From contig LBWB01000012.1 of assembly GCA_000993405.1 (NCBI GenBank), positions 37,777-101,776 of the forward strand: a stretch of 64,000 nt of DNA, read 5' to 3'. This document shows positions 8,886 to 23,082 of the stretch, piece after piece. Each line of letters begins with the position of its first letter. The first letter of the stretch is position 1. Under the pieces are notes generated by a model. It did no database searches and was not told where the DNA came from. It saw only the letters and a list, made by a program, of their open reading frames with translations. This DNA comes from Candidatus Woesebacteria bacterium GW2011_GWB1_39_12. Lineage in GTDB: Bacteria > Patescibacteriota > Microgenomatia > UBA8517. Made by a program: the position numbers and the translations under genes.

Positions 8886-11627
8886 ATGAGCAAAGAGGAA
8901 ACCAAACAAAAAATCCAAGAGTTGGTCGATAAATATGAGAAAGCAAAACTTTCTCGTTCAATTTCTAAATATACAGAGGAAGAAACAAAAAAAGACTTTA
9001 TACTTCCATTATTTCAAGCTTTAGGCTGGAATATTTTTGATAAAAACGAGGTTAGTGCAGAAGAATCACAGTCGGGAGGACGAGTTGATTTTGGTTTTTA
9101 TTTTAAGGGCAGACTCAAATTTTATCTTGAGGCAAAATCTTTACGAACTGATCTTAATAGGGAAGAATTTGCTAATCAAGCCATCAAATATTCTTGGAAT
9201 AAGGGCGCAACCTGGGCAATTTTGACAGATTTCGAGGGCTTGAAAGTTTTCAACGCTCAAATTATCGATAGAAAACTTACGGACAAGCTTTATTTTGAAA
9301 TACTTTCAAACCAATATGTTGAAAGGTTTGATCAGCTTTGGTTACTCTCCAAAGGTGCTTTCGAAGAAAATTTAATTGATAAAGAAGCTGAAAAAGTCGG
9401 TAAAAAAATTCAAAGAGTTTCGGTAGGAATATCACTATATAAAGATTTAACCTTGTGCAGAGATATCTTAACCGACAAGCTTGGAAAAATGAATCCTGGG
9501 ATAGATAGTGAATTGTTAGACGAGGGTGTTCAGAAATTACTGGATAGACTTATATTTATAAGAGTTGCAGAAGATCGGGGAATAGAGCCACCAACATTAA
9601 TTCCTCTTATTCGTGCGTGGAAAAATAGCAAAAACCCAAACGAAATTCCTCTTTATAAGTCGATGGTTTCAAAGTTTAGAGAGCTAGATGAAACTTACAA
9701 TTCGAACCTTTTCACTAAACACCCATTGGAAGATTGGGAAGATTGGAGCAATATAACTGAACAAGTTGTAAAAATTCTCCAAGGAAAGCCGGGCTATTAC
9801 GAATATGACTTCAAAGCTATTCCCTCGGATGTTTTAGGAAGCGTTTATGAAAATTATCTAGGCTATAGACTTTCAAAATCCAAAAAAGGACTCACTCTCA
9901 GTAAAGACGCTAAAAAGAGAAAAGAACACGGAATCTACTATACTCCAGATTATATTGTTGACTATATTGTTAAAAATGCACTTAAACCGGTTCTGGACAA
10001 ATGTAATTCAGTAGCAGAGTTAAAGAAGATTAAGGTTTTAGATCCCGCTTGTGGTTCAGGCTCCTTTTTAATTAAAGCGATGGATTTAATTTACAAAAAA
10101 TATGAAGAATTTGGCAATCGAGGAGGGACATATACTAAATTAGCCATCCTGTTAGACAATATTTATGGTGTTGACCTTGATCCACAGGCAGTTGAAATAG
10201 CCAGGTTAAATCTTTTACTTAATATTCTTGAAGAAAAAATAAAACTTCCTTTACTTGATAAAAACATTAAAAACGGCAATTCTCTTATTTCAGGAACAGA
10301 TGAAGAGCTTAAAAGATATTTTGGAGAAAACTTCAGAGATAAAAAACCATTCAATTGGCAAGAAGAATTTCCGGAAGTATTCAAACAAGGTGGTTTTGAC
10401 GTAATTATAGGAAATCCGCCATATATAAGTTTTTATTCGAGGGAATCCCACTTAGACCAATATATACAAGATGTACAGTTTCTTACAGACAAATATGAGT
10501 TAACTCAAATATATTCTGACAGAAGACTAAATACCGTTATGTTTTTTATTGAAAGGTCTCTGCAGATACTGAGAGCTCATGGGAACTTGGGTTTTGTGAT
10601 AGATGCAAACTTTTTGGAAAAACCTTTCAGGGCACTTAGGTCATGGTTAGTGGAAAAGAAGTTCGTAGTTAAAATTTCACAAAAGTTTTCTGCTTTTAAC
10701 GAAGTGGCTAGCGATCAAAATCTTCTGTTTGTTAAAAAATCTAAGTCAGAGCTTCCTTTTGAAGTATTAAGTTTTGATGGAAATGTCGGAAACTTTACGA
10801 ACTCCAAAATCAAAGTTCTTTCTGAAAAGTTCAAAGAGGATGTGGTGAATCTAAATCCAAAGAAAATTAATCTTTATAAAGTTGGTATATTACCACTTAA
10901 GGAATTGGCGCTGGTTTCGACGGGTGTACAGATCGGAATAGGTGGAACAAGGGCATATGACGGACAAAACATTGAAAAATTGTTTTATTCTGAATCTAAA
11001 AAATCGGAGAAACATTTTGAAAATATATCGCTGAATCCAAAAGATTTCTTTCAATATTGTCCACCCAAAACAAAGAATTACCTGAATTTGGATGAAAAAT
11101 TAGCGTCTAAAATAAATAGAAACGTAAAAAAATGTAACATTGCAGTTACGAAAGCAAAACCATTTATAAACAAGGAAAAAATTTTTGTCAGACAATCTTC
11201 TTCATCGATTGTTGCAACTGTAGGTCAGCCAAGGCAAATTTCAGAGTATTCTGCCTTTATGATAAGACCTTTCCAGAAGCACGATACTCATTTCATTCTG
11301 GCAATTCTAAATTCTAAACCAATGACCTTATATGCTAAAGAGGAAAATGTAATTTTAATGGGTAATAAAAAACAACCACAAATCAGGCTAAAGGGTCTGA
11401 AAAAACTACCTTTTCCAGTTGTTGGTGTTAACCCAAAGAGGTCTTTGGCTAGTAAAGCACGGGTTATGTTACATCTCAACAATAAGTTGTTAAAAGTACA
11501 AGAAAACTCAGAAAAATGGAATTATATAAAATCAGAAATCGAGAAAACTGATAATAAAATTGATGAAGAAGTTTACAAACTCTACAACCTCACGGCTAAA
11601 GAAATTGAAATTGTGGAGAAAAGTTGA
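8886..11627 (+). CDS. MmeI-family Type IIL/IIG restriction-modification enzyme (fused PD-ExK nuclease, gamma-class N6-adenine methyltransferase and target-recognition domain)
   Basis: 913 aa. The N-terminal MmeI-like nuclease domain has VDFGFY...YLEAKS (D...EXK). It carries SAM motif I (VLDPACGSGSFL) and motif IV (IIGNPPYI), plus a long C-terminal TRD-like region. Confidence 0.7.
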   Translation: MSKEETKQKIQELVDKYEKAKLSRSISKYTEEETKKDFILPLFQALGWNIFDKNEVSAEESQSGGRVDFGFYFKGRLKFYLEAKSLRTDLNREEFANQAIKYSWNKGATWAILTDFEGLKVFNAQIIDRKLTDKLYFEILSNQYVERFDQLWLLSKGAFEENLIDKEAEKVGKKIQRVSVGISLYKDLTLCRDILTDKLGKMNPGIDSELLDEGVQKLLDRLIFIRVAEDRGIEPPTLIPLIRAWKNSKNPNEIPLYKSMVSKFRELDETYNSNLFTKHPLEDWEDWSNITEQVVKILQGKPGYYEYDFKAIPSDVLGSVYENYLGYRLSKSKKGLTLSKDAKKRKEHGIYYTPDYIVDYIVKNALKPVLDKCNSVAELKKIKVLDPACGSGSFLIKAMDLIYKKYEEFGNRGGTYTKLAILLDNIYGVDLDPQAVEIARLNLLLNILEEKIKLPLLDKNIKNGNSLISGTDEELKRYFGENFRDKKPFNWQEEFPEVFKQGGFDVIIGNPPYISFYSRESHLDQYIQDVQFLTDKYELTQIYSDRRLNTVMFFIERSLQILRAHGNLGFVIDANFLEKPFRALRSWLVEKKFVVKISQKFSAFNEVASDQNLLFVKKSKSELPFEVLSFDGNVGNFTNSKIKVLSEKFKEDVVNLNPKKINLYKVGILPLKELALVSTGVQIGIGGTRAYDGQNIEKLFYSESKKSEKHFENISLNPKDFFQYCPPKTKNYLNLDEKLASKINRNVKKCNIAVTKAKPFINKEKIFVRQSSSSIVATVGQPRQISEYSAFMIRPFQKHDTHFILAILNSKPMTLYAKEENVILMGNKKQPQIRLKGLKKLPFPVVGVNPKRSLASKARVMLHLNNKLLKVQENSEKWNYIKSEIEKTDNKIDEEVYKLYNLTAKEIEIVEKS

Positions 11628-11648
11628 CTTCATTTATTTAGCTTCATA

Positions 11649-11677
11649 TTGACAAATTCCATAGCTGGGTATATAAC
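11649..11677 (+). promoter_or_regulatory. sigma70-like promoter TTGACA-17nt-TATAAC, 10 nt upstream of the ATG at 11688
   Basis: Consensus -35, a 17-nt spacer and a near-consensus -10. The very short leader implies a near-leaderless mRNA. Confidence 0.5.
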
Positions 11678-11687
11678 TTTGTTTAAT

Positions 11688-12194
11688 ATGATAAAGGATT
11701 TAAACTCGTTACTTTCGCTACAGGAGGTTTCTGAACTATTAGGAGTCCACCCTGAAACTTTAAGACGTTGGGACAGAGAGGACAAGTTATCAGCAATTAA
11801 AGTCAACGAGAGAGGAGATAGGAGATATCGATATGGAGATGTTATGAGAATTCTAGGAAGTTACGGAACAATAGAATACAAGGGATTTAAAATAACTCAC
11901 TACAGTCCAGGTTTTGAAATGTTTCCAGATAGGTTTGGTTCCATAGCTAAATTTGTAGTAAGTAATAATTTGGTAGTTGCAGGTTTTGCTTTTGCAGTTG
12001 CGGGTCTGAAACTTTTTGCAGAGCCAGATGTTAAATCGCAAGATCTAGAAAATCTAGCATTGTCAAAAATCAAGTATTTTATAAACCAAAAGCTAATAAA
12101 GAATTTAAAGGAATATACTTTCGAGTTTGAATCTAGGGAACAAGGATTTATACAAATTAAAAATCCAGACTGGTGGACTAAAGGAAGTTTATGA
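11688..12194 (+). CDS. HTH (excisionase/MerR-like HTH_17) DNA-binding protein with a C-terminal hydrophobic segment
   Basis: LSLQEVSELLGVHPETLRRWDRE helix-turn-helix. The ATG at 11688 is preferred over the TTG at 11649 used by the ORF track. Its stop overlaps the next gene's start (ATGA). Confidence 0.55.
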   Translation: MIKDLNSLLSLQEVSELLGVHPETLRRWDREDKLSAIKVNERGDRRYRYGDVMRILGSYGTIEYKGFKITHYSPGFEMFPDRFGSIAKFVVSNNLVVAGFAFAVAGLKLFAEPDVKSQDLENLALSKIKYFINQKLIKNLKEYTFEFESREQGFIQIKNPDWWTKGSL

Positions 12195-13114
12195 GCGAGA
12201 AGATATATGTTAGTAAAATTACGCAAGACACAAAGAACAGCGTTAAAGATTGTCTTTTGAGTTTATTTTACCGAAAGAACGATTTGATTCAATTTTTAAA
12301 AAGTTGCGGTTCCACATCTTCTGATTTGATTAATATAGGAGAATTAATGACAAAGTCCCGAATTGTTGACACTTATTTTGGCAACCTCGAACAGAGGTTA
12401 GACAATGGAACAGCTCAGTATCATAGTTTGATGAGACAAATTATTGATTGGGACGATTTTGACTCTTATTGGTTTCGGAATGGCAGTCTAGATGCAGGTT
12501 ATGCAAAAAGTAGGATTGGGCAATTGAACAAGCTTTTAGGTAAGAAAACAAAAATAGAAGAGGAGAGACTGAAATTACGCGAGAAAGAACAAGAATACGA
12601 AAAAATAAAAGCTAGGTCTCAGCTAATAACTGATTTAAGAGATAAATTTTATCGAATGTGTCAGGATAGCGATCAGACGCAAAAACGAGGTTACGAGTTA
12701 GAAGATTTACTAAATAAAATGTTTAGTTTTTTCGGCTTTGACGTTTTCAAACCATTTAAACTAAAAGGGGAGCAAATAGATGGTTCCTTTAAACACGATG
12801 GAGATAACTATATATTTGAGTCGAAATGGCAGGATAAAGAAAGTGCAGTCAATGATCTTTATGCTTTTGCTTACAAAATAGAGAGCAATTCTTTGTATCC
12901 TAGGGGTGTGTTTTTTTCTATAAATGGATACTCTGAAGATGCATTAAATAGAATAACTTACAACAAAAAGGCTCAACTAATTTTATTTGATGCCGTCGAT
13001 ATAATCGCCGTTCTCGAGGAACGTATATCATTAGTTAGTCTTCTGGAAGAAAAAATTAGATTTGCACAAACACATTCAAGAATCTATGTTAATGCAAATG
13101 ATATTCTTAAATGA
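12191..13114 (+). CDS. Mrr-like restriction endonuclease-fold (PD-(D/E)xK) protein with an N-terminal domain of unknown function
   Basis: The C-terminal region FGFDVF...GEQIDGSF...IFESKWQDK...SINGYSEDA matches the Mrr_cat D...(D/E)xK pattern. It is translationally coupled to the HTH gene. Confidence 0.55.
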   Translation: MSEKIYVSKITQDTKNSVKDCLLSLFYRKNDLIQFLKSCGSTSSDLINIGELMTKSRIVDTYFGNLEQRLDNGTAQYHSLMRQIIDWDDFDSYWFRNGSLDAGYAKSRIGQLNKLLGKKTKIEEERLKLREKEQEYEKIKARSQLITDLRDKFYRMCQDSDQTQKRGYELEDLLNKMFSFFGFDVFKPFKLKGEQIDGSFKHDGDNYIFESKWQDKESAVNDLYAFAYKIESNSLYPRGVFFSINGYSEDALNRITYNKKAQLILFDAVDIIAVLEERISLVSLLEEKIRFAQTHSRIYVNANDILK

Positions 13115-13230: not shown

Positions 13231-13244
13231 CAAATTTGACCCCA
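13231..13244 (+). repeat. cassette-boundary motif copy a (CAAATTTGACCCCA, short form)
   Basis: First member of an 18-copy motif family. It lies 117 nt after the Mrr-like gene stop. Confidence 0.8.
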
Positions 13245-13322
13245 CTCTTTTGGTGTCTCGTATTTAGTATTTAGGAATAATTTGCGTTGACAGTGAGTCT
13301 TTCATATAGTTTAATAGGGATT

Positions 13323-13610
13323 ATGGACGACGTTAAGAAAATGTTTAGAGTAATTGTTAACGGGCAGAGTGTAATAAAGCAAGAGTTGCTTTCGGAAATT
13401 AAGAAAGTAGACAAGAGCTTGAGCGGCAGAATTGATAGTTTAACTACAGAAATGAAAGACGGGTTTAAGAAAGTAAACAAACGTTTAGATTTAATAGGGA
13501 AATCAGTCGCCTTTCTTGAGGATGATACACCGACTAGAGAAGAACATGATAAATTAGAAAAACGCGTTTCTAAAGTAGAAAGAAAACTTCAAATTCAAGC
13601 ACCTGTTTAA
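13323..13610 (+). CDS. small coiled-coil protein, paralog copy 1 (96 aa from MDDVKKMF)
   Basis: ~90% identical to the ORF at 20532..20819, and the upstream 90 nt are also conserved. Confidence 0.55.
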   Translation: MDDVKKMFRVIVNGQSVIKQELLSEIKKVDKSLSGRIDSLTTEMKDGFKKVNKRLDLIGKSVAFLEDDTPTREEHDKLEKRVSKVERKLQIQAPV

Positions 13611-13616
13611 ATATTT

Positions 13617-13634
13617 TCTCCAAACTTGACCCCA
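13617..13634 (+). repeat. motif copy b (TCTCCAAACTTGACCCCA, short form)
   Basis: Starts 7 nt after the preceding stop codon. Confidence 0.8.
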
Positions 13635-13665
13635 TCTTTTTCTATTTTAAAATATATAATTAGTT

Positions 13666-14088
13666 ATGGTTAAGATTAGGAATTATAAAATTAGTGATTA
13701 CACGAAAGTCAAAGAAATTTTAGAAGAAGCCAGTCTTTTTGATGGAGTTTGGGATTCGGAAGAAAATTTATCAGGTAAGATTAAAGCCAATCCTGAATCA
13801 ATACTTGTTGCGGTAAAAGATGGTGTAATTGTTGGAAATGTATGTATCATTAATTACGGGTCAAAACTTCAATATCTTTTCCGTTTGGCTGTAGATAAAG
13901 ATTATCGTAATCAGGGAATAGCAACACAGTTAATTAATTCTGCAGTTGATATTGCAAGAAAAAATGGGGTAAATGAAGTGGGTTTATATGCTGATGCAGA
14001 CAATTCTAAATTGTTAGCCTATTACAGCAAAAGAGGCTTTAAAAAATCTAAGAGCAGATATTATTATATGTGGCAGGATATTAAATAA
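13666..14088 (+). CDS. GNAT family N-acetyltransferase
   Basis: Acetyl-CoA-binding motif RNQGIATQLI (R/Q-x-x-G-x-A/G) and a ~140-aa GNAT fold length. Confidence 0.75.
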   Translation: MVKIRNYKISDYTKVKEILEEASLFDGVWDSEENLSGKIKANPESILVAVKDGVIVGNVCIINYGSKLQYLFRLAVDKDYRNQGIATQLINSAVDIARKNGVNEVGLYADADNSKLLAYYSKRGFKKSKSRYYYMWQDIK

Positions 14089-14092
14089 GAAT

Positions 14093-14160
14093 CTCCAAAT
14101 CCTTCGATAAATTATAACAGTGAGTGTAGTCGAACTGCTCAGGACTATAGTTTGACCCCA
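14093..14160 (+). repeat. motif copy c, long form (CTCCAAAT-CCTTCGATAAATTATAACAGTGAGTGTAGTCGAACTGCTCAGGACTATAG-TTTGACCCCA)
   Basis: 68 nt, starting 5 nt after the GNAT stop. The palindrome halves are separated by a ~48-nt insert. Confidence 0.8.
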
Positions 14161-14236
14161 CGGTTATTTTTTTGTATCAAACTGCGGTTTCTTGACTTTG
14201 TTACTTTTGAACCTCAATATTAGATTAAGGTTAAAT

Positions 14237-14509
14237 ATGATAATAGATGATCCTAACTTTGATATTCCACTTTGGTTTTTTTATCTAATAGCTTTTATAA
14301 AAATAGCATATCTACTTTTTATAGTTTGGGTTATTTTTAACTTATTTTTGATGATTTATTGGTTAATTAGGTCGATAAAAGATAAAAGTGTTATAAAGAT
14401 AGTCAAGAAAAGGGTTAAGTATGTTTTTTTTGGAATGGCTGCTCTTTTAATTCTCTCTTTGGTAGCTTACGTTTTAGGGTTAGTCCCCAATATTAGAGAT
14501 ATTGTGTAG
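14237..14509 (+). CDS. small membrane protein (2-3 TM helices), hypothetical
   Basis: Hydrophobic 90-105-aa ORF. The start is ambiguous (ATG 14192 or 14237). Confidence 0.4.
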   Translation: MIIDDPNFDIPLWFFYLIAFIKIAYLLFIVWVIFNLFLMIYWLIRSIKDKSVIKIVKKRVKYVFFGMAALLILSLVAYVLGLVPNIRDIV

Positions 14510-14576
14510 TTCGTAGCACTTGTATATTAAAGAAAATTAAACAACATAGGGTTGGACTGAAATGTCTCAGGAAAGG

Positions 14577-14590
14577 CAAATTTGACCCCA
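14577..14590 (+). repeat. motif copy d (CAAATTTGACCCCA)
   Basis: Short form. It begins a ~300-bp segment that is duplicated at 18126..18440. Confidence 0.8.
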
Positions 14591-14673
14591 CAATTTTTTA
14601 GAGCGTTTTTTTCTACAGACTCCGCAACCCCTGTTTTGTTGACAAGCCCTGAAATAAGTTTTAAAGTTTTACC

Positions 14674-14871
14674 ATGAACGACGAAAGGGTAAGAGAGCAC
14701 CGCATCCCTCAAAACACAATTGTTGATAGGGGAGGGTATATCGGCCCAGGAGGCAGAATCAACGCCGAGCTTGTGCGGCCACCTGTTGCAGCATCGCCCA
14801 CAACAGAGATTCCACCCGCAGTTTCCCCGCAATCAACTGGAACCGAAAACCCACCACCTACAACGTATTAG
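14674..14871 (+). CDS. small Pro-rich protein, paralog copy 1 (65 aa, MNDERVREHRIP...)
   Basis: Paralog at 18221..18445 differs by an in-frame 27-nt indel and a few substitutions. The frame is conserved on the + strand, and TTGACA...TTAAAG lies upstream. Confidence 0.5.
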   Translation: MNDERVREHRIPQNTIVDRGGYIGPGGRINAELVRPPVAASPTTEIPPAVSPQSTGTENPPPTTY

Positions 14872-14883
14872 TAGTAATATTTT

Positions 14884-14951
14884 CTTCAAATCCTTCGGCA
14901 TGTTATAACAGTGAGCGTTGTCGAACTGCTCAGGACTATAGTTTGACCCCA
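14884..14951 (+). repeat. motif copy e, long form (CTTCAAAT-CCTTCGGCATGTTATAACAGTGAGCGTTGTCGAACTGCTCAGGACTATAG-TTTGACCCCA)
   Basis: 68 nt, starting 13 nt after the stop of the previous ORF. Confidence 0.8.
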
Positions 14952-14974
14952 AATTATTGATAAGAAAGTAGTGC

Positions 14975-15418
14975 ATGTTCTATACTGGTAGTGTGAAGTA
15001 TTTTAAAAACTTCTTTTTATTTTTTTTGCTAACTTTTTTAATTGCTCCGTTTCCGGAATGTATAGATGGATCCTATAGGGGGGTTAATAAATTTAAATGT
15101 TATACCGGTTTATCATTTTTACCTCCTCTAATAAATATAACTTCGATTATGAGCTTTTCATTTCTTTTTTGGTATAAATCTGATCGGGTCGTTTATAACT
15201 ATTGGCTTTGGCAAAATTTCCAGTCTTTTGTCACTTTTATTATTCTTCCCGTTTTAATGTCAGTTTTTTATACAAAATTTGTTGAAAAGTTTGATGCTAA
15301 AAAGAGAGTAATGTATATGATTTTTATTTTGATATTATTCCTGACGGTAAATACTTTAGTCTTTTATTTATTGAAGTACTATAAAATATTGCCGGCTTCG
15401 CTTTTAATTGCCGATTAG
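14975..15418 (+). CDS. hypothetical membrane protein (4 TM)
   Basis: 147 aa and hydrophobic, with no recognisable motifs. Confidence 0.45.
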   Translation: MFYTGSVKYFKNFFLFFLLTFLIAPFPECIDGSYRGVNKFKCYTGLSFLPPLINITSIMSFSFLFWYKSDRVVYNYWLWQNFQSFVTFIILPVLMSVFYTKFVEKFDAKKRVMYMIFILILFLTVNTLVFYLLKYYKILPASLLIAD

Positions 15419-15488
15419 TTTTAAGATAATTATTAATTAATAAATTGCGCCTTAGAAGTGAAATAAGTTTACACCTTGATATATCCTT

Positions 15489-15625
15489 CCAATTTGACCC
15501 CATAATCCATTCGGCTTCGCTCAGGACTATAGTCCATTCGACAAGTTATAACAGTGAGCGTTGTCGAACTGCTCAGGACATAGTCCTTCGGTTTTACTCA
15601 GAATCATAATTCTTCGATTTTTGTT
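15489..15625 (+). repeat. motif copy f, composite (short core CCAATTTGACCCCA plus ATAATCCATTCGGCTTCGCTCAGGAC, plus the GTTATAACAGTGAGCGTTGTCGAACTGCTCAGGAC insert segment at 15545..15579, plus a tail shared with 18471..18551)
   Basis: Sub-repeats are shared with copies g, h and j. Confidence 0.75.
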
Positions 15626-15644
15626 TGGGTTTGAGATATAATTA

Positions 15645-16328
15645 TTGCAAATGTATAAACTATCTCCTTCCGACTTTAAGTATTTGTATGAGGACTGTAA
15701 GCATTGCTATTACCAAAAAGTTCGGGGGGTAATTAAAGAGCTCCCCTCGATTGGTATGCCGGGGGTATTTACGAAGATGAATACTCTTTTGCAAAACACA
15801 ATTATCGGCATGGATTTACGGGAAATTAATTCCAAACTTCCCGCAGGTAAAATCGAGGTTAAAGAAGGTTTTTTGAAATCCAAAACAATTCCTCCAACCA
15901 ACGATTGCTTTATAGGAGGAAGATTTGATATTGCCTCACGCCTTGACGACGGAACTTATTCAGTCATAGATTTTAAAATTACTGATCCTACAGAAGACAA
16001 AATCCAAAAGTTCTTTCCGCAATTGCATGCTTACAAATTTGCCCTGGAAAATCCGGCGTTTGGTGAGGCGAAAAAGGTGAGCAAAATGGGAGTTATCGCA
16101 ATTAATCCTGAAGAGATATCTTTTCCTGGCGAGAAAGTAGTCTTTACGGCAAAGCCCCTATTGTTTGAGATCGAGGAAGACATGGATAGGTTTTTTGCAT
16201 TTATTTCTGAAGTATCTAAATTGGTGAATGGACCTGAACCGCCGGAAAACTCTGACAATTGCAAATGGTGTTATTATCGACTTTGTACGACAAAGGTTAA
16301 AGATAACCAAGAAGACATTCCTTTTTAA
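15645..16328 (+). CDS. Cas4-like / RecB-family PD-(D/E)xK nuclease with an Fe-S Cys cluster (standalone, no CRISPR locus)
   Basis: N-terminal SPSDFKYLYEDCKHCYY (Cas4-like YxxC motif), core GGRFDI...SVIDFKI (D...DxK), and C-terminal CKWCYYRLC (CxxCx4C). Confidence 0.6.
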   Translation: MQMYKLSPSDFKYLYEDCKHCYYQKVRGVIKELPSIGMPGVFTKMNTLLQNTIIGMDLREINSKLPAGKIEVKEGFLKSKTIPPTNDCFIGGRFDIASRLDDGTYSVIDFKITDPTEDKIQKFFPQLHAYKFALENPAFGEAKKVSKMGVIAINPEEISFPGEKVVFTAKPLLFEIEEDMDRFFAFISEVSKLVNGPEPPENSDNCKWCYYRLCTTKVKDNQEDIPF

Positions 16329-16337
16329 TAACTCTTT

Positions 16338-16393
16338 AAATTTGATCTCATAATCCATTCGGCTTCGCTCAGGACTTCGCAAATTTGACTACA
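16338..16393 (+). repeat. motif copy g, degenerate (TAAATTTGATCTCATAATCCATTCGGCTTCGCTCAGGAC ... GCAAATTTGACTACA)
   Basis: Starts 10 nt after the Cas4-like stop and shares a 27-nt block with copy f. Confidence 0.7.
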
Positions 16394-16423
16394 GAGTTAT
16401 TCGAAATTATACTAGCCCATATT

Positions 16424-17356
16424 ATGAGTGAGAGAGGAAAAGATAAAAAAATTGTAAATGCCAGAAGTACAATCGCGCATCTTGGAAGAAAAGAGCATCT
16501 TACATCCAAAGAAGAAGATAGATTAGATAAAGCTAAAAAAATTACAAGACGACAATTTTTTAAACGGGCCGGAGTTTTAACCGGTGGTGCAGCTCTAACC
16601 GTAATTGGCGGTGGTGCAGCTTATAAAATTGTAGAAAATTTGACAAAGAGTGAAAGTGATGAAGAGGTTGTTACCGGATATGAGAAGGCATTAAATTCTG
16701 TTGTCGAAGGCGATTCAGAGGGAGAAAAATTACTTGATTTTTACAGAGACAGGAAGCGGGACGCCCATATAGAGGGCGATGTTATTTATGCTGATGAAGA
16801 AGGGGACTTAGATAGTAACTTCTGGGTGGTGGTGGATAGAGGTGGAGAATTTAAATCAAATAGAGTTACGGGAATTTCAGAATATAGCCAAGATAATAAT
16901 TTATTGAGAGTTAGATCCTTTGAATCAACTGATGACTTCAAGGGAACCTTGCTCGCACATGAACTGAAACACGCTTATGACGATATTATGCAGATAGAAG
17001 GTCCGGATGAGAATTCATTTTACCGTTCTGAAGCAGAGGCATATGATTTTGAATTTCGATTATTAGATAATGTTTCGGGGAAGCGTTTTATAGGTGTACT
17101 TCAGGAACAGTCACGGTCTATTGAACCGGGAAAGTTTAGGGGTAGATTGTCAGATGAAAATTTTATTTCCTTGAATGATTTATTTCTTGACGCTGTAAGC
17201 AAAGAAGAATTAAATCATAGAGTAGTAGTGTATACAATCGCACTAAATTTTGCCGCCATCGGATTAAGATCTGATATCGCCGATGTTGCACAACAAAAAG
17301 CGGAATATATTCGTGCGATTTATTCTCAAGATATCCCAATATTACCCCTTGATTAA
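16424..17356 (+). CDS. Tat-signal secreted HExxH metallopeptidase-like protein
   Basis: Twin-arginine motif TRRQFFKRAG followed by a hydrophobic h-region, and HELKH (HExxH). The ATG at 16424 is preferred over the TTG at 16385. Confidence 0.5.
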   Translation: MSERGKDKKIVNARSTIAHLGRKEHLTSKEEDRLDKAKKITRRQFFKRAGVLTGGAALTVIGGGAAYKIVENLTKSESDEEVVTGYEKALNSVVEGDSEGEKLLDFYRDRKRDAHIEGDVIYADEEGDLDSNFWVVVDRGGEFKSNRVTGISEYSQDNNLLRVRSFESTDDFKGTLLAHELKHAYDDIMQIEGPDENSFYRSEAEAYDFEFRLLDNVSGKRFIGVLQEQSRSIEPGKFRGRLSDENFISLNDLFLDAVSKEELNHRVVVYTIALNFAAIGLRSDIADVAQQKAEYIRAIYSQDIPILPLD

Positions 17357-17448
17357 CAATTTAATGCCATTTTGAAAGGAACTTGACTTAATGTGGCATT
17401 CTTATGTCACCTTCAAAGTATGATACAAGTAAGTAAATCAGGATTTTT

Positions 17449-17506
17449 CTCCAAATTCGACACTTAGACGTGACTAAGTGCAAGCCCATAATCCATTCGA
17501 CAAGCT
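17449..17506 (+). repeat. motif copy h, degenerate (CTCCAAATTCGACA ... CCCATAATCCATTCGACAAGCT)
   Basis: Lies in the convergent gap between the metallopeptidase gene and the minus-strand HD gene. Confidence 0.6.
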
Positions 17507-17517
17507 CCGAAATATTT

Positions 17518-18075
17518 TTAAATTTTCTTTGCTCTTTTCAAATCTCTTTTCTCAAGTTCCTTAAATATCTTGCTGCCGTTTTTGGATTTAAAAACAGGTT
17601 TATAATTTTCAAAAAAAGTATCCAAAACTTTTGTATCTTGTGTTTCTTCTTCAAATACTTCTCCCTGAAGTAAGGTTTCAAGCTTATCGGCTTCCCTCGC
17701 AATTTGGGATTCTTTAGTCTTCATAGAATTAAATTCATTGAATAAATTCATATATTCTTTTTTAATTACGGAAGGTAGTTCGTTGAAAACAGTCCTTTTT
17801 GCTTTCTCTTCCATTAATCGCTTCTTGTCATAATTACCGGAGGGGGGAATAACGTCATCCATTTTTGCCATCACCCAATCGTGAACTAATAATATCTTGA
17901 CTACTTTCTCTGAATTTACCTTCTCAAGTTTTGCCAAGTAGAGACCAATGCACATTGCCCCAAAAATGTGAGAGGCCAGATCATCCGAATCCATTCCTTT
18001 GTAAATCCAACCCTGGCGCTTGGTCTTCTTTAAAACTGAAATGATTGAGTACAAGTCCTTTATAGTTTTCATCAT
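17518..18075 (-). CDS. HD-domain phosphohydrolase (YfbR-like 5'-deoxynucleotidase family)
   Basis: H...HD...D pattern: SHIFGAMCIG, LLVHDWVMAKMDD, READKLETLLQ. Confidence 0.6.
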   Translation of the reverse strand: MMKTIKDLYSIISVLKKTKRQGWIYKGMDSDDLASHIFGAMCIGLYLAKLEKVNSEKVVKILLVHDWVMAKMDDVIPPSGNYDKKRLMEEKAKRTVFNELPSVIKKEYMNLFNEFNSMKTKESQIAREADKLETLLQGEVFEEETQDTKVLDTFFENYKPVFKSKNGSKIFKELEKRDLKRAKKI

Positions 18076-18120
18076 ACAATTTTAGCACTTGTAGATTCAT
18101 TTTTCGATAAACTCCAGTTT

Positions 18121-18139
18121 CTTCAAATTTGACCCTGCA
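18121..18139 (+). repeat. motif copy i (CTTCAAATTTGACCCTGCA)
   Basis: Start of the duplicated segment (copy 2). Confidence 0.8.
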
Positions 18140-18220
18140 ATTTTTTAGAGCGTTTTTTTCTACAAACTCCGCAACCCCTGTTTTGTTGACAAGCCCTGAA
18201 ATAAGTTTTAAAGTTTTACA

Positions 18221-18445
18221 ATGAACGACGAAAGGGTAGGAGAGCACCGCATTCCTAAAAACACAATTGTTGATAGGGGAGGGTATATCGGCGCAGGAGG
18301 CAGAATCAACGCCGAGCTTGTGCGACCACCCGAAGTCGTTCCTCCTATAAATCCGCCTGTCGCAGCATCGCTCACAACAGAGACGCCACCCGCTGTTCCC
18401 CCGCAACTATCTGGAAACGAAAACCCACCACTCACAACGTATTAG
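18221..18445 (+). CDS. small Pro-rich protein, paralog copy 2 (74 aa)
   Basis: See 14674..14871. A 9-aa insertion (EVVPPINPP) preserves the frame. Confidence 0.5.
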   Translation: MNDERVGEHRIPKNTIVDRGGYIGAGGRINAELVRPPEVVPPINPPVAASLTTETPPAVPPQLSGNENPPLTTY

Positions 18446-18457
18446 TAGTAATATTTT

Positions 18458-18551
18458 CTTCAAATCCTTCGGCAAGTTATAACAGTGAGCGTTGTCGAAC
18501 TGCTCAGGACTATAGTCCTTCGGTTTTACTCAGGATCACGATTCTTCGACT
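18458..18551 (+). repeat. motif copy j, long form variant (CTTCAAAT-CCTTCGGCAAGTTATAACAGTGAGCGTTGTCGAACTGCTCAGGACTATAG-TCCTTCGG...), with a tail shared with copy f
   Basis: Starts 13 nt after the stop. It is ~95% identical to 15545..15625 and lacks the terminal TTTGACCCCA. Confidence 0.75.
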
Positions 18552-18583
18552 TTTATTTATTGAAGCAGTATAATCGCCATAGA

Positions 18584-18976
18584 ATGTTGGAATCAAAATC
18601 GTCCATAAATCAGGGACTGGCAGAAATATATAAAGAGGCATGTCAAAACCTTGGTAGGTATTTAGACGGTTTGAATCATGGTGTTGCAAGGTCGTATAAA
18701 GGACGTATGAGGCAAGAAACGGTACGACAAGAGGTTGAAGAGTACGGGCAGGAATCTCTTTACCATACTTTCGAAACACCGTACGTTCAGGGATATGGTT
18801 TGGTTGTCTCGACTTTAAATATTTTAGAAAGGTTAAATGTTCATACAAATACCGATCTTTTAGGATTAGATATAGAGAACGCCGAAAAGCAAAACAGAGA
18901 CTTTGGCGATAAAAAAGTAGAATTGGTTGGCCTTTTCAAAGAAATAGTCAGAGCACAAAAAGACTTAGAAGAGTAG
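18584..18976 (+). CDS. hypothetical protein (130 aa from MLESKSS)
   Basis: ATG at 18584 with TATAAT 9 nt upstream. The ORF-track GTG start at 18485 lies inside the repeat and is rejected. Confidence 0.45.
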   Translation: MLESKSSINQGLAEIYKEACQNLGRYLDGLNHGVARSYKGRMRQETVRQEVEEYGQESLYHTFETPYVQGYGLVVSTLNILERLNVHTNTDLLGLDIENAEKQNRDFGDKKVELVGLFKEIVRAQKDLEE

Positions 18977-18982
18977 TATTAT

Positions 18983-18999
18983 CTCCAAATTTGACCCCA
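18983..18999 (+). repeat. motif copy k (CTCCAAATTTGACCCCA)
   Basis: Starts 7 nt after the stop. Confidence 0.85.
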
Positions 19000-19065
19000 C
19001 ATTATTAGTATTAAATATTGAGTATATCGTAGTTATGGAATGTTGTGGGTGATATACTTTAGCCT

Positions 19066-19632
19066 ATGAAGAGGGCAATAATTGTTCACTGTTGGGAAGG
19101 GTATCCTAAGTATTGTTGGTATCCTCAAACTAAAAAGGAGTTAGAAGAGGAAGGTTTTGAAGTAGAAGTTCCAGAGATGCCTGAAACTGCAAATCCTAAA
19201 CTTTCTGGGTGGCTTTCCAAGCTTAAAGATATAGTTCAAACTCCTGATAAAAATCTCTTTTTAGTCGGGCACAGTTTAGGCTGTATAACCATAATGAGAT
19301 ATTTGGAAAGCTTAAAAGAGGGCAAGAAAGTGGGAGGAGTAGTTTTTGTGGCGGGATTTACGGATGATTTGGGTTATAAGGAACTCACAAACTTTTTCAC
19401 TGAAACGATTGATTTTGAAAAGATTAGAGAAAAATCTGATAGTTTTTATGCAATAAATTCCGATGACGACCCATACGTTTCTCTTAAATACGCTGATATT
19501 TTGAAAGAAAAACTCGGAGCGATATCGATAATAAAGCATAATATGAAGCATTTCTCAGGACCAATAGACAATGAAGACAGCTGTCTTTCTATTCCGGAAG
19601 TTACAAAGTCCATCATAAAGATGGCGAGGTGA
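19066..19632 (+). CDS. RBBP9/YdeN-like alpha/beta serine hydrolase
   Basis: ~190 aa with IIVHCWEG at the N-terminus and the nucleophile elbow GHSLG. Confidence 0.7.
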   Translation: MKRAIIVHCWEGYPKYCWYPQTKKELEEEGFEVEVPEMPETANPKLSGWLSKLKDIVQTPDKNLFLVGHSLGCITIMRYLESLKEGKKVGGVVFVAGFTDDLGYKELTNFFTETIDFEKIREKSDSFYAINSDDDPYVSLKYADILKEKLGAISIIKHNMKHFSGPIDNEDSCLSIPEVTKSIIKMAR

Positions 19633-19634
19633 TT

Positions 19635-19651
19635 CTTCAAATTTGACCCCA
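19635..19651 (+). repeat. motif copy l (CTTCAAATTTGACCCCA)
   Basis: Starts 3 nt after the stop. Confidence 0.85.
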
Positions 19652-19696
19652 TATTGCTTCACCAGAATAAGGCGATTATAGCTCAACTGGATGAGT

Positions 19697-19930
19697 TTAT
19701 ACTATTGGTCGATGGGGTAACCTGGCACGAGTGGCTCTCGATACGGCATTGGGGTTAGTTGCATTACCAACTGCACCTATAACTTCATCTACACTGAAAG
19801 GTTCGGGAGTTAAGGCTTGAATTACATCTAACTTGGCTAGCTCTGCGGAATCTCTCGGGTCTTCCGGTTGAACGTGTTGGTATCTTTGGATTACTTCTCT
19901 TGTAAGAGGAGCTTCAATTCTTAAAGTCAT
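19697..19930 (-). CDS. hypothetical 77-aa protein (minus strand, locally higher GC)
   Basis: The ORF sits in a GC-richer patch. It is the only minus-strand ORF in this gap and has no motifs. Confidence 0.3.
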   Translation of the reverse strand: MTLRIEAPLTREVIQRYQHVQPEDPRDSAELAKLDVIQALTPEPFSVDEVIGAVGNATNPNAVSRATRARLPHRPIV

Positions 19931-19966
19931 TAGTTGTTCGTATTATAAGGATAGAATTAAGATTTT

Positions 19967-19981
19967 GCAAATTTGACCCCC
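19967..19981 (+). repeat. motif copy m (GCAAATTTGACCCCC)
   Basis: Short form. Confidence 0.8.
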
Positions 19982-20036
19982 GACCGTAGAAATTAAACGA
20001 TAGTTTCGTTTGAATATTCTATGTTAAGATTAACTA

Positions 20037-20402
20037 ATGAAACGCAGATTGCCGTATATTATTATTTTTATTTTATTTATAGCAATTTTAATTTTTCTGT
20101 ATTTTTTATTTAGTATGAATTATGTTCCTAAGAATAAGGAACTGAAATTTACGAATTCTCCACTTAATTATTGTTCGTCCAATTTTGATTGTTATATTTA
20201 CAGTTATGATTCATGCCAGTGTCCGACCAGTGTTGTTGTGAATAAGAAATATAAAGATTCCCCTGAGCTGTATAATAATTTTCCTATTACTCCCTCCGAA
20301 GAATGTCTTATTGCTTGTACTCCTGGAAGCTCTTTTCCCAAAAATGCTTATTGTGTTAATGGTAAGTGCGGTATTGAATACGAGAAATTGTTTGAAAAAT
20401 GA
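20037..20402 (+). CDS. small secreted Cys-rich protein (hypothetical)
   Basis: N-terminal signal/TM helix and 10 Cys in the mature part. Confidence 0.5.
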   Translation: MKRRLPYIIIFILFIAILIFLYFLFSMNYVPKNKELKFTNSPLNYCSSNFDCYIYSYDSCQCPTSVVVNKKYKDSPELYNNFPITPSEECLIACTPGSSFPKNAYCVNGKCGIEYEKLFEK

Positions 20403-20444
20403 CTTAAGATTTGTAACAATTGAGATTATTCATCCGTGAAATAT

Positions 20445-20461
20445 CCTTCAAATTTGACCCT
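20445..20461 (+). repeat. motif copy n (CCTTCAAATTTGACCCT)
   Basis: Begins the duplicated coiled-coil cassette (20445..20822, similar to 13231..13613). Confidence 0.8.
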
Positions 20462-20531
20462 ACTTTTGGTATCTAGTATTTAGGAATAATTTGCGTTGAC
20501 GGTGAGTCTTTCATATAGTTTAATAGGGATT

Positions 20532-20819
20532 ATGGACGACGTTAAGAAAATGTTTAGAGTAATTGTTAACGGGCAGAGTGCAATAAAGCAAGAGTTGCTT
20601 TCGGAAATTAAGAAAGTAGACAAGAGCTTGAGCGGCAGAATTGATAGTTTAACTACAGAAATGAAAGAAGGGTTTAAGAAAGTAAACAAACATCTTGATA
20701 TGATTGGAAAGAGTGTTGCTTTTCTTGAAGACGACACACCGACCTGGGAGGAACATGATGAATTAGAAAAGCGGGTTACTAAAGTTGAGAAAAAACTTCA
20801 GATTCAAGCACATATTTAA
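20532..20819 (+). CDS. small coiled-coil protein, paralog copy 2
   Basis: See 13323..13610. Confidence 0.55.
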   Translation: MDDVKKMFRVIVNGQSAIKQELLSEIKKVDKSLSGRIDSLTTEMKEGFKKVNKHLDMIGKSVAFLEDDTPTWEEHDELEKRVTKVEKKLQIQAHI

Positions 20820-20826
20820 ATATGCT

Positions 20827-20869
20827 CTCCAAATCCTTCAGTATTATTCAGGACTGTAGTTTGACCACA
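20827..20869 (+). repeat. motif copy o, intermediate form (CTCCAAAT-CCTTCAGTATTATTCAGGACTGTAG-TTTGACCACA)
   Basis: Starts 8 nt after the stop and has a shortened insert. Confidence 0.7.
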
Positions 20870-20928
20870 AAACCCCCAGCCGTTTCTTTCACGCGCCCTA
20901 TTATGAGAGTTGTTGAAACTATTGGTGA

Positions 20929-21226
20929 AGTTATTTAATCGCGTCTCGAACCGCCTCCTCCTCTGTTGTCGTTTCCGCCCGAAGATCTCTCTTCTCGCGG
21001 TCTTGCTTCGTTAACAACTATTTTTCTTCCGCCAAGCTCCGTACCGTTTAACTCTTTTATTGCTTTATCTGCATTTGCATCGTCTGCAAACTCAACAAAA
21101 GCAAACCCCTTTCCTTGATTCGTAAACTTGTCGGTAATAACGTCAGCCGTAGTAACTTCTCCTATTTTCGAAAAAAGTTCCAGAAGCCCGTGAAACCTAT
21201 ACCTGAAGTATCGATTTAGTGCCTAT
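20929..21226 (-). pseudogene. RRM-type (RNP-1/RNP-2) RNA-binding protein gene, apparently 5'-truncated with no in-frame start
   Basis: The minus-strand translation ...GLLELFSKIGEVTTADVITDKFTNQGKGFAFVEFADDANADKAIKELNGTELGGRKIVVNEARPREERSSGGNDNRGGGGSRRD* contains RNP-1 (KGFAFVEF). The RNP-2 region is garbled, and no ATG/GTG/TTG precedes the in-frame stop. Confidence 0.5.
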
Positions 21227-21360
21227 CAGAATGGATTCGTAACCTTAAGCTGTATTATATCTTAATTGGTTCCATAATTCCTAATAATCGGTTGTAGTAG
21301 AAATTTAACCCCACATAAAATGCTTCATTCTTCCTAAAGTTTTTTTAAGCCGATTTCCAG

Positions 21361-21374
21361 CAAATTTGACATTA
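21361..21374 (+). repeat. motif copy p, degenerate (CAAATTTGACATTA)
   Basis: Short form with the CCCCA tail lost. Confidence 0.6.
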
Positions 21375-21420
21375 GTTGATTTATTTCTATATAATGACTT
21401 TTTATATAAAAGTTTCAGTT

Positions 21421-22164
21421 ATGAAAGGTAAATTAGTTTTATTAACATCTCTCCTTACTTCATTTATTCTTCTTTTTTATGTCGCAACCGGTGTTAGGGC
21501 TGAAAATCCAAAAGAACAAGTTGGTCGCGGACCATTAACCAAGATTACCTTTATTCATTACAAGAAAGCGTTTGCCAAACCGCCTTGGGCAGGCGGGAAC
21601 AACACAACAGCGGTAAAGTGTTACGGTTTTTTGGCAAGAGGTGCAAAATGGAAAATCCAGGAGCCGTATTATGTAAACCCAACAGACTCCGGTCTAAGTT
21701 CCTCATTTGTCGAGAATGCAGTTACCACTGGAGTTGGTGAATGGGAGAATTATGCAGGAAACGTGTTCGGAAACGGAAACGTTGATGCGAGCGCAAGCTA
21801 TAACGAGGGCAATCTCGATGGAGTAAATACGGCTTCGTTCGGTTCATATCCTGATAACGCTGTCATTGCCGTAACCAACGTTTGGGGATATTTCGGCGGT
21901 CCACCTCAAACCAGAGAATTGGTCGAATGGGATATGCTTTTTAACAACTCTTCGGAATGGACCTGGGGAGATGGACTAGGTGATCCGACACTGATGGACG
22001 TACAAAATATTGCTACTCATGAACTCGGACATAGTTTCGGCATGGCCGATCTTTATGATACGTCGTGTAACTTGGAAACAATGTATGGTTACTCAACCGA
22101 AGGCGAGACTTCAAAACGGGATTTAAATTCTGGTGATATTCAAGGAATCCAAGAGTTATACTAA
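21421..22164 (+). CDS. secreted metzincin-like zinc metalloprotease
   Basis: Signal peptide, HELGHSFGMAD (HExxHxxGxxD), and a Met-turn candidate (ETMYGYS). Confidence 0.65.
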   Translation: MKGKLVLLTSLLTSFILLFYVATGVRAENPKEQVGRGPLTKITFIHYKKAFAKPPWAGGNNTTAVKCYGFLARGAKWKIQEPYYVNPTDSGLSSSFVENAVTTGVGEWENYAGNVFGNGNVDASASYNEGNLDGVNTASFGSYPDNAVIAVTNVWGYFGGPPQTRELVEWDMLFNNSSEWTWGDGLGDPTLMDVQNIATHELGHSFGMADLYDTSCNLETMYGYSTEGETSKRDLNSGDIQGIQELY

Positions 22165-22210
22165 AGAACTTCTACAAATTTCACTCCAAGGAAAAATTAA
22201 TAGTTAATTA

Positions 22211-22477
22211 TCATATACAAGTTGGAACTTTATCTCCCGGCAAAGTTAAGCAGATGAAGTAACAATTAGCCAGACAAGCGCCTCGAGGACACCCCAGTTC
22301 TGCCCCTTTTATACATATGGGATATTTGTTTTTGCAACTCGTTCGACACAAGTTTTTTCTTACTAATAAAATAGTTGTTACTAAAAAAGTTAATAAGGTA
22401 AGGATAAATATTATAATTAAAAAAATTTTATATATCTTCACAACCTTAATATTAGAAGCGATAGAGAATAAATTCAA
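22211..22477 (-). CDS. small Cys-rich membrane protein (hypothetical)
   Basis: 88 aa, with an N-terminal TM helix and 9 Cys. Confidence 0.3.
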   Translation of the reverse strand: MNLFSIASNIKVVKIYKIFLIIIFILTLLTFLVTTILLVRKNLCRTSCKNKYPICIKGAELGCPRGACLANCYFICLTLPGDKVPTCI

Positions 22478-22481
22478 CTTT

Positions 22482-22498
22482 CTTCAAAATTGACCCCG
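22482..22498 (+). repeat. motif copy q (CTTCAAAATTGACCCCG)
   Basis: Short form, upstream of BrnT. Confidence 0.8.
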
Positions 22499-22526
22499 TT
22501 GTTTGATATGGCAAAAGGTATGGTAA

Positions 22527-22826
22527 TATGGTAATATCCTTACAGATACGACTTTTGAGTGGGATGAGGATAAAAATACTAAGAATCTGAAGAAGCATGG
22601 TGTCGACTTTGAAACTGCCCAATACGCTTTTCTAGACGAAAGACGTGTAATTGCAAAAGATTTAGCACATAGTAAAGAAGAAGAACGGTATTATTGTTTC
22701 GGTAAAGTAAAAGGAGGTGTAATAACTGTCCGGTTTACCTATCGAGATAATCGTATCCGGATAATCGGAGCAGATTATTGGAGAAGGGGCAGAAAAATAT
22801 ATGAAAAAGAAAATAAAATATTCTAA
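22527..22826 (+). CDS. brnT: BrnT-like toxin (DUF497 ribonuclease fold); the ORF lacks a canonical in-frame start codon
   Basis: Translation TTFEWDEDKNTKNLKKHGVDFETAQYAFLDERRVIAKDLAHSKEEERYYCFGKVKGGVITVRFTYRDNRIRIIGADYWRR... matches the BrnT family. It overlaps brnA by 26 nt. An 8-bp tandem duplication, TGGTAATATGGTAATA, lies at the 5' end. Confidence 0.55.
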   Translation, partial: YGNILTDTTFEWDEDKNTKNLKKHGVDFETAQYAFLDERRVIAKDLAHSKEEERYYCFGKVKGGVITVRFTYRDNRIRIIGADYWRRGRKIYEKENKIF

Positions 22827-23028: not shown

Positions 23029-23055
23029 AACACTTCTATCTGGGCATTTTTCTTT

Positions 23056-23082
23056 CCTTCAAAGTGCACAAATCTGACCCCA
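23056..23082 (+). repeat. motif copy r (CCTTCAAAGTGCACAAATCTGACCCCA)
   Basis: Last copy. It starts ~27 nt after the brnA stop. Confidence 0.7.

Follow-up and report, generated by a model that had tools for sequence, protein, structure and literature searches.

The locus discussed here raises the question of whether a gene enclosed by the repeats of a cassette-like array has to be one of the mobile units of that array. In a window of 64,000 nucleotides (nt) from Candidatus Woesebacteria bacterium GW2011_GWB1_39_12 (contig LBWB01000012.1), which is the whole stretch of DNA that we analysed, a gene for a nuclease of 225 amino acids (aa) lies at 15651-16328 within an array of co-oriented copies of a short motif. 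An earlier note on this DNA had taken the gene for a Cas4-like nuclease carried as a cassette, and had used it as support for a mobile origin of the array contents. We consider it probable, though by no means assured, that the gene is a resident, vertically inherited one encoding a single-domain nuclease of the Cas4/AddB/Dna2/EXO5 ('iron-staple' RecB-like) branch with a housekeeping role, and that the array has grown around it. The protein would represent an uncharacterised subfamily of the Microgenomates, in the candidate phyla radiation (CPR), with distant members in other phyla.

To place the gene, we looked at where its homologues occur. A word-indexed search returned 684 homologues at E<=1e-3, and the best 120 of these are nearly all about 225 aa long with 71-86% identity. 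The hosts are Woese-, Gottesman-, Ames-, Levy- and Curtissbacteria as well as other Patescibacteria. An exhaustive search of 50%-identity representatives gave 623 clusters at E<=1e-3 and 355 at E<=1e-10, most of the 623 having 26-40% identity to the nuclease and its length. The wider family reaches Armatimonadota and Actinomycetota, where the distant homologues are named only 'PD-(D/E)XK nuclease family protein' and are likewise solitary genes. The nuclease was shown to be under very strong purifying selection. Its subfamily comprises more than 600 clusters at 50% identity, and in Microgenomates its conservation exceeds that of IleRS or FtsW. Many records carrying a Microgenomates-type gene among CPR-like neighbours (loci L013, L016, L017, L019, L021 and others; we number loci with the prefix L) are titled 'uncultured Gammaproteobacteria' or 'Candidatus Bathyarchaeia'. 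They are probably mislabelled metagenome-assembled genomes, so that record names are no reliable guide to taxonomy here.

The neighbourhoods of the gene tell of its descent. The boundary motif of the array is absent from 45 of the first 49 nuclease loci, and more than 40 genomes carry the gene without a flanking motif. The ancestral neighbours, namely IleRS-FtsW, Obg, a gene for an RRM_1 protein and a cupin gene, are kept in genomes that have no array. Downstream of the nuclease lie IleRS-FtsW in the window, L001 and L021, and FtsW-MurG-FtsA in L049. Obg is found upstream and divergent in L001, L011, L012 and L034. The gene of the RRM_1 protein adjoins the nuclease divergently in L032 and L033 and is in its vicinity in L014, L024 and L028. 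Near the nuclease there is also a cupin gene in L014 and L027, and L012 and L032 have a DEAD-box helicase gene there. A conserved operon partner was not seen, no neighbour family occurring in more than 5 of the 47 loci. An accessory unit whose homology ends at its sites, as in an integron cassette, is not what we found for the nuclease, whose position and neighbours are kept without the motif.

Comparison with the window gave 80% identity for the nuclease of L001 and L021, against 55-68% for IleRS and 60-65% for FtsW. The corresponding values are 85% against 60% for the cupin in L014, and 52% against 35% for FtsW, 36% for MurG and 51% for FtsA in L049. In L033 the nuclease has 69% identity, ParB 74% and the signal peptidase 56%. 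Judged by these sequences, the identity of the nuclease tracks and exceeds that of its core neighbours. The G+C content at third codon positions points the same way, being 0.381 for the nuclease and 0.383 for IleRS as opposed to 0.227 and 0.265 for two cassette genes, GNAT and a 323-aa open reading frame (ORF), and 0.282 for a restriction-modification (RM) gene. The window itself is plainly chromosomal, with MurG, FtsA, FtsZ, IleRS, FtsW, ParB, signal peptidase, PolX and GatCAB. The genomes without the motif, the retained ancestral neighbours, the core-like base composition and the identity above that of IleRS and FtsW all speak against the gene being carried as a cassette. This picture of descent agrees with the published pattern of solo-Cas4 genes, which are enriched in CPR genomes that lack CRISPR-Cas and show mainly vertical evolution (PMC5704561).

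A phage-type or other mobile origin, which the earlier note had also suggested, found no sequence relatives to lean on in phage or plasmid collections. In tblastn, the nuclease had no match in 50,697 phage records (INPHARED) or 72,556 plasmids (PLSDB), and IMG/VR gave only two matches, with 29-34% identity, on contigs of 441 kb and 479 kb. The statement of the earlier note that the window has no cas genes or CRISPR array held within the sequence scanned. There are no CRISPR-like closely spaced direct repeats in the window, a Pfam scan of about 50 of its ORFs gave no Cas family, and neither cas1/cas2 nor a CRISPR array stands beside the nuclease in the window or in the annotated neighbourhoods of its homologues.

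What kind of protein the gene encodes could be answered at the level of fold and active site. The Pfam family PDDEXK_1 (PF12705) matched with 31.6 bits (E 2e-7), its gathering cut-off being 22, and it was also matched by 73 of the 78 diverse members, with 26-86% identity, that make up our broad family alignment. PF01930 (Cas_Cas4) did not match the protein and matched 2 of the 78 relatives weakly (E 0.006). Of the two Pfam families that the earlier note had named for a check, only PDDEXK_1 thus matched the protein. PADLOC Cas4 models matched almost the full length (E 1.9e-5), and the NCBIfam Cas4 equivalog TIGR00372 scored 19.1 bits, below its cut-off of 65. NCBIfam holds no dedicated curated family for the nuclease. 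A weak likeness was found to the 'exonuclease' profile phrog_298 (E 1.6e-5).

Comparison with known structures placed the protein more closely. Searches of PDB sequences with the single sequence or a close-family profile gave noise only. A profile of the 78 family members found Cas4 SSO0001 (4IC1, E 0.0018), the Argonaute-associated Cas4-family protein ACE1 and AdnB, with alignments spanning the GxxD, DxK and QxxxY motifs and the C-terminal CxxC. AlphaFold2 with the 32 close homologues alone reached a mean predicted local distance difference test score (pLDDT) of 48. When distant representatives were added, the pLDDT rose to 93, with a predicted template modelling score of 0.87. The model has a predicted RecB-like alpha/beta nuclease fold, which is that of Cas4, and distant fold likeness extends to phage proteins (BFVD Foldseek, TM about 0.5-0.6). 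Profile matches, invariant catalytic residues and fold search all led to the Cas4/AddB/Dna2/EXO5 branch, and not to an unrelated family lacking the RecB motifs, the outcome by which the earlier note could have been overturned. The identification as a stand-alone Cas4-like PD-(D/E)xK nuclease is therefore supported at this level. The protein is not Cas4 proper; it belongs to a PDDEXK_1-type subfamily with a site of 2+2 cysteines.

The predicted active site is conserved throughout the family, and all its elements are encoded on the + strand. Motif II (GRFD, G90-R-F-D93, 15918-15929), with G90 and D93 in 78 of 78 members, contains the predicted catalytic metal ligand D93 (15927-15929) and aligns with the G+.D motif of SSO0001 and AdnB. 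Motif III (IDFK) provides the D/E-x-K part of the PD-(D/E)xK site at 15969-15977, with D107 (15969-15971) and K109 (15975-15977) both in all 78, and aligns with the DxK/ExK motif of SSO0001, ACE1 and AdnB. The QhxxY motif, a hallmark of RecB-family nucleases (defined in PMC4176176), is present as QLHAY (16020-16034), where Q124 (16020-16022) is found in 78/78 members and Y128 (16032-16034) in 77/78.

The cysteines set the subfamily apart. The N-terminal CxxC within YLYEDCKHC (C16, 15696-15698; C19, 15705-15707) is complete in 78/78. The C-terminal CKWCYYRLC (16260-16286) contains C204 (16260-16262; 78/78) and C207 (16269-16271; 76/78), which align with the C-terminal CxxC of SSO0001, and a third cysteine, C212 (16284-16286). 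C212 is present in 24 of 32 close relatives, missing from the other 8, and occurs in 7 of the 78 broad-family members, 62 of which have no further cysteine within 10 residues. The residues invariant across the 78 are C16, C19, G90, D93, D107, K109, Q124 and C204. Canonical Cas4 has one N-terminal and three C-terminal cysteines, C...CxxCx5C (PMC4176176). The nuclease has an N-terminal CxxC and a C-terminal CxxCx4C, of which the conserved cysteines form a 2+2 pattern (C16, C19, C204, C207). The Cas4 hallmarks listed in the earlier note, YLY..C, D...DxK and CxxCx4C, are thus literally present, well in excess of chance, but the spacing is not the CxxCx5C of Cas4 proper and the last cysteine is not conserved.

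In the AlphaFold2 model both CxxC pairs sit at helix N-termini (helices 17-24 and 205-213). From this arrangement we infer that the four cysteines act as ligands of a metal centre at the topological place of the Cas4 'iron staple', with the N-terminal helix giving the fourth ligand, which would have shifted there from the C-terminal loop of Cas4. They would clamp the N-terminal to the C-terminal helix around that centre, and a CxxC...CxxC tetrad could hold either an Fe-S cluster or Zn. The N- and C-terminal metal-binding motifs are also alike among themselves (DCKHCYYQK versus NCKWCYYRL). The likeness reaches the DNA level in L003 (6044-6067 versus 6605-6628), the window counterparts being 15696-15716 and 16260-16280, and hints at an internal duplication or at convergence of the two CxxC knuckles.

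By analogy with its relatives, the nuclease would cleave DNA with a divalent cation (Mg2+ or Mn2+) bound at the D/D/K site. The likeliest activity would be that of a 5'->3' single-stranded DNA exonuclease or an end-processing endonuclease, as in Cas4, AddB and EXO5. Solo-Cas4 of M. mazei is a metal-dependent DNA nuclease whose [4Fe-4S] cluster is dispensable for catalysis (PMC12501428). In the cell, the enzyme may serve in housekeeping resection or trimming of DNA ends during recombinational repair in these small-genome bacteria. As the DNA-end-processing enzyme missing from the reduced Microgenomates genomes, the subfamily is a good candidate.

Next we considered how a resident gene came to be bounded by the motif, for the earlier note was right that it is. 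Direct repeats of 43 nt, 91% identical, flank the nuclease on both sides and hold an exact 26-mer that occurs twice, with no occurrence in shuffles. The upstream copy (15486-15528, + strand) contains the motif core CAATTTGACCCC (15490-15501). The downstream copy (16334-16376) begins 6 nt past the stop codon and contains a degenerate core, AAATTTGATCTC (16338-16349), followed by a further core, AAATTTGACTAC (16381-16392), so that this flank extends over 16334-16392. Since the motif bounds a strongly conserved resident gene just as it bounds the other units, such bounding is no proof of mobile cargo, and the gene does not lend support to a mobile origin of the array contents. The flanking repeats would have arisen as the cassette array accumulated on both sides of the gene, which itself would not have arrived as a cassette.

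The upstream region, together with the start of the gene, is informative in this respect. The + strand is an uninterrupted ORF over 15645-16328. We place the true start at the ATG at 15651, two codons inside the TTG used in the earlier note, because all 32 close homologues begin with MYKLSPSDF. The resulting coding sequence (15651-16328, 225 aa, stop included) is 100% identical to UT24_C0012G0055 of Candidatus Woesebacteria bacterium GW2011_GWB1_39_12. A -10-like TATAAT box is readable at 15637-15642 on the + strand. Because this box sits 8 nt 5' of the ATG and no Shine-Dalgarno sequence can be read before the ATG, the nuclease transcript is probably leaderless or nearly so, with the box as its putative promoter. 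In an alignment, three other Woesebacteria loci show a -10-like box 6-8 nt ahead of the nuclease ATG.

Between the boundary motif and this promoter lies a 104-nt block (15507-15610, + strand) of three tandem hairpin-type units of the TCC(A)TTCG...CTCAGGAC kind with ATAAT repeats on its flanks. One unit has an 8-bp stem (TTCGACAA/TTGTCGAA). The block is absent from the otherwise colinear upstream region of L034, a locus of Woesebacteria RIFCSPHIGHO2_01_FULL_39_32, which has at least 20 motif copies around Obg and the nuclease. The window and L034 have in common an upstream module that runs from the motif through ATAATTCTTCGAyTTTTGTTyGG, TATAAT and 8 nt to the ATG. The same module is absent from L012, though the nuclease of L012 is much closer to that of the window (86%), and pieces of it also precede other units (window 18512-18558; L012 near 1858). 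These observations suggest that repeat and promoter modules spread, not the nuclease gene. The nuclease, 63% identical between the window and L034, is the sole gene common to the two arrays; in L034 it stands on the ancestral backbone as in the window, with two cassettes between it and Obg.

The array as a whole spans about 10 kb (13232-23081, + strand) and contains the core AAATTTGACCCC 17 times, all on the + strand, with only three chance-level matches elsewhere in the window. From 47 copies at four loci we derived the 19-nt consensus TTTCTyCAAATTTGACCCC. The copies separate ORFs that are small and diverse: a 107-aa coiled-coil-like protein (twice), a GNAT protein, two membrane proteins, the nuclease, a 323-aa protein, an HD protein, a Ser hydrolase, an M10 peptidase and others. 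The core starts at most 25 nt after a + strand stop codon in 27 of 87 cases, compared with 3.6% at random. The unit at 22487-23083, with a 98-aa ORF on the - strand, is 89% identical at the nucleotide level to L051 6359-6955, the homology starting and stopping at the motifs and the neighbours differing. This is direct evidence of motif-to-motif unit exchange, and the array does hold mobile units. Duplicated units with 91-96% identity are 13260-13559/20469-20768, which contains the 107-aa ORF, and 14577-14942/18124-18516, a unit of about 365 nt with an ORF of 65-74 aa and no family match. The 107-aa family, which is more widespread across arrays than any other cassette family, recurs in other arrays, as does the Ser hydrolase. 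Ten other same-population assemblies are 99.7-100% identical across the array, and no gain, loss or turnover of units was seen among them.

Several points weigh against the resident housekeeping nuclease that we favour. A repair partner such as a helicase or RecA was not found to adjoin the nuclease consistently. A pattern-seeded scan with one genome per species gave at least 38 loci (45-86% identity), and with 38 species representatives as a lower bound the status of a core gene is not established. Identity to the window ignores class names, being 83-84% in Gottesmanbacteria and Levybacteria and 63-68% in other Woesebacteria, which could reflect some horizontal transfer within Microgenomates or unreliable names. 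Furthermore, the nuclease of both the window and L034 is formatted as a cassette, with motif and promoter module 5' and a motif right after the stop codon. Lastly, we infer substrate, polarity and type of metal centre (Fe-S or Zn) alike.

Among the alternatives, a defence role fares best, although we regard it as rather unlikely. The nuclease would then degrade or process invading DNA in the manner of a solo-Cas4, perhaps with adjoining RM systems, for which ACE1 with prokaryotic Argonaute and RecBCD after restriction would be analogues. Its structural relatives include Cas4 and the Argonaute-associated ACE1 (PMC12094033), and uncharacterised defence or repair roles have been proposed for the solo-Cas4 of small genomes (Hudaiberdiev et al., PMC5704561). 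RM genes do lie just upstream in some loci, of type I in L003 and L004 and type III in L005 and L023, and a type IIG enzyme lies 4 kb upstream in the window. However, such adjacency concerns only about 3 out of some 40 different neighbourhoods, with another type of RM each time, which fits a common insertion hotspot and not a functional module. PADLOC matched only generic Cas4 models and no system, and the extreme conservation, above that of IleRS and FtsW, is unlike that of arms-race genes.

That the nuclease came from a phage or mobile element and was captured by the array as a mobile, motif-bounded cassette appears distinctly unlikely and has largely been refuted. The repeats that carry the array motif on both sides of the gene would fit such a capture. 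So would the motif-flanked copy in L034 with its upstream module, the behaviour of the unit exchanged with L051 as a mobile block, and the existence of phage proteins of the same fold. Yet the copies embedded in the two arrays have only 63% identity between them, and the closest relative, in L012, is not motif-flanked. The gene stays beside IleRS-FtsW, Obg or the RRM gene in genomes that have no motif nearby, its identity and base composition go with the core genes, and homologues in phage and plasmid collections are lacking apart from the two distant IMG/VR matches.

It is hardly probable that the nuclease forms the conserved anchor, and possibly a DNA-processing enzyme, of an undescribed integrase-less cassette platform of Woesebacteria built on a 19-nt unstructured motif, with the CxxC...CxxC site being separately new for 'iron-staple' nucleases. 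A narrower proposal, that the nuclease is a working part of the array which processes ends or cuts the 19-bp motif, loosely like the integrase gene of an integron, is highly improbable. In four Woesebacteria genomes (window, L034, L012 and L032), motif arrays and the nuclease are indeed only a few kb apart. The array of L141, found independently through the motif, abuts the DEAD-box helicase gene that neighbours the nuclease in L012 and L032, and no recombinase was seen beside any array. But the co-localisation in the nuclease-centred loci is biased, these having been found via the nuclease, which is equally conserved in more than 40 genomes without an array; moreover, arrays of 6-13 kb exist without the nuclease in the available sequence. 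We know of no PD-(D/E)xK exonuclease that performs site-specific recombination. An activity on RNA, in end processing or decay, has the faintest chance, since the top matches by structure and by profile are DNA nucleases throughout, all having the QhxxY motif, and each neighbour concerned occurs in at most 5 of 47 loci.

The resident nuclease is ordinary in kind, as CPR genomes without CRISPR are already known to have stand-alone Cas4/RecB-like nucleases. From Cas4 (DUF83/PF01930, COG1468, TIGR00372; for example SSO0001 4IC1, Pcal_0546 4R5Q and type I-C Cas4 8D3L), it differs in scoring below the family thresholds, in having 2+2 (CxxC...CxxC) instead of 1+3 cysteines (PMC4176176) and, unlike CRISPR-associated Cas4, in having neither cas1/cas2 nor a CRISPR array beside it at any locus examined. 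It is like the solo-Cas4 of CPR bacteria and DPANN archaea (PMC5704561) in being stand-alone and mostly vertical in small CRISPR-less genomes, and differs from them in the cysteine arrangement and the unusually high conservation. The solo-Cas4 survey (Hudaiberdiev et al., 2017, PMC5704561) covers PF01930/COG1468 and sets aside PF12705, the branch of this nuclease. AddB, AdnA/AdnB, Dna2, EXO5 and MGME1 are domains of helicase-nuclease machines or larger enzymes, whereas the nuclease is a single domain of 225 aa without an adjacent helicase. With the phage Cas4-like/RecB-family exonucleases (phrog_298, COG2887-type) it has a weak profile likeness and a common fold. It differs from them in its lack of an INPHARED or PLSDB sequence match and in its chromosomal neighbourhood of cell-division and tRNA-synthetase genes. 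In the literature we found nothing on 2+2 cysteine variants, nor on integron-like arrays in Patescibacteria/Woesebacteria.

The motif-delimited array is more unusual than the gene, since it recurs in several Woesebacteria with exchangeable units, without a hairpin site or a visible recombinase. Like integron cassettes (an ORF with attC, and IntI), its units are small, mostly single, co-oriented ORFs with a conserved site a few nt after each, and both have duplicated cassettes and units common to arrays of different genomes. Integron attC sites are imperfect inverted repeats (R''/L''-L'/R') whose single strand folds as a hairpin, whereas the site of the array is a conserved 19-nt, non-palindromic sequence without excess folding. 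The array also has no adjacent integrase, and among the genes enclosed by such arrays are resident core genes, namely the nuclease, Obg and the RRM gene. We rejected an attC-like hairpin for the motif, the DNA-folding z-score being -0.07 for 93 motif-centred segments against -0.30 for controls; none of the 17 copies in the window has an inverted partner, and Rfam gave no match in the array. A sigma-70 -35 element was likewise rejected as a general explanation. Some copies do form TTGACC-17-TATAAT, but correctly spaced -10 boxes showed no clear excess, numbering 8 against about 4.3 expected (score >=6; shuffles), and the confinement of the motif to 10 kb of the 64-kb window also speaks against a promoter.

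Recombinases were sought around the arrays. Phage_integrase had no match among the ORFs flanking the array of the window, and tblastn with a Xer-type recombinase found nothing in the window. Other loci with the motif are L012, where copies lie upstream of Obg, and L032 with three copies. Further arrays came to light in L098, L051, L122, L141/L132, L080, L071 and others when metagenomes were scanned with the motif as seed. No recombinase was seen beside these arrays, the large flanking ORFs being a LexA-methyltransferase fusion, GmrSD and ThrRS and, judged by eye only, radical-SAM-like, PheS-like and NHL-repeat proteins. The fusion, in L051 at 800-2203 on the - strand, is a 467-aa LexA (helix-turn-helix (HTH) and S24 peptidase) joined to an N4/N6 DNA methyltransferase and lies beside or inside the array. 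The GmrSD type IV restriction enzyme is carried as an array unit in L098 (6568-8373, + strand).

At the left edge of the array, a defence-like operon (8219-13114) encodes an NYN-family nuclease, a type IIG restriction-methylase (Eco57I/MmeI-like, 913 aa), an HTH protein that matches PADLOC 'mad1' (E 1e-9) and a 307-aa protein. In L114, too, a related type IIG enzyme is found to the left of the array. The 307-aa ORF (12191-13114) has no family match, overlaps the upstream HTH gene and lies downstream of the RM gene, and it looks like a part of the RM operon. Within the array, an element of about 50 nt (...GTTATAACAGTGAGCGTTGTCGAACTGCTCAGGACTATAG) is found inside the boundary motif, between CAAAT and TTTGACCCC, at 14092-14160, 14883-14951 and 18457-18525 (and 15526-15594). 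It is either a small insertion targeting the motif, resembling a miniature inverted-repeat transposable element, or a long form of the site. Compared with the same-population assemblies, which are otherwise 100% identical to it, the window lacks 25 nt at 25532/25533 in IleRS, so that this gene is split into the ORFs 23646-25601 and 25547-26611, and about 90 nt at 21182-21191, which breaks an RRM_1 gene on the - strand; both missing stretches are probably assembly artefacts.

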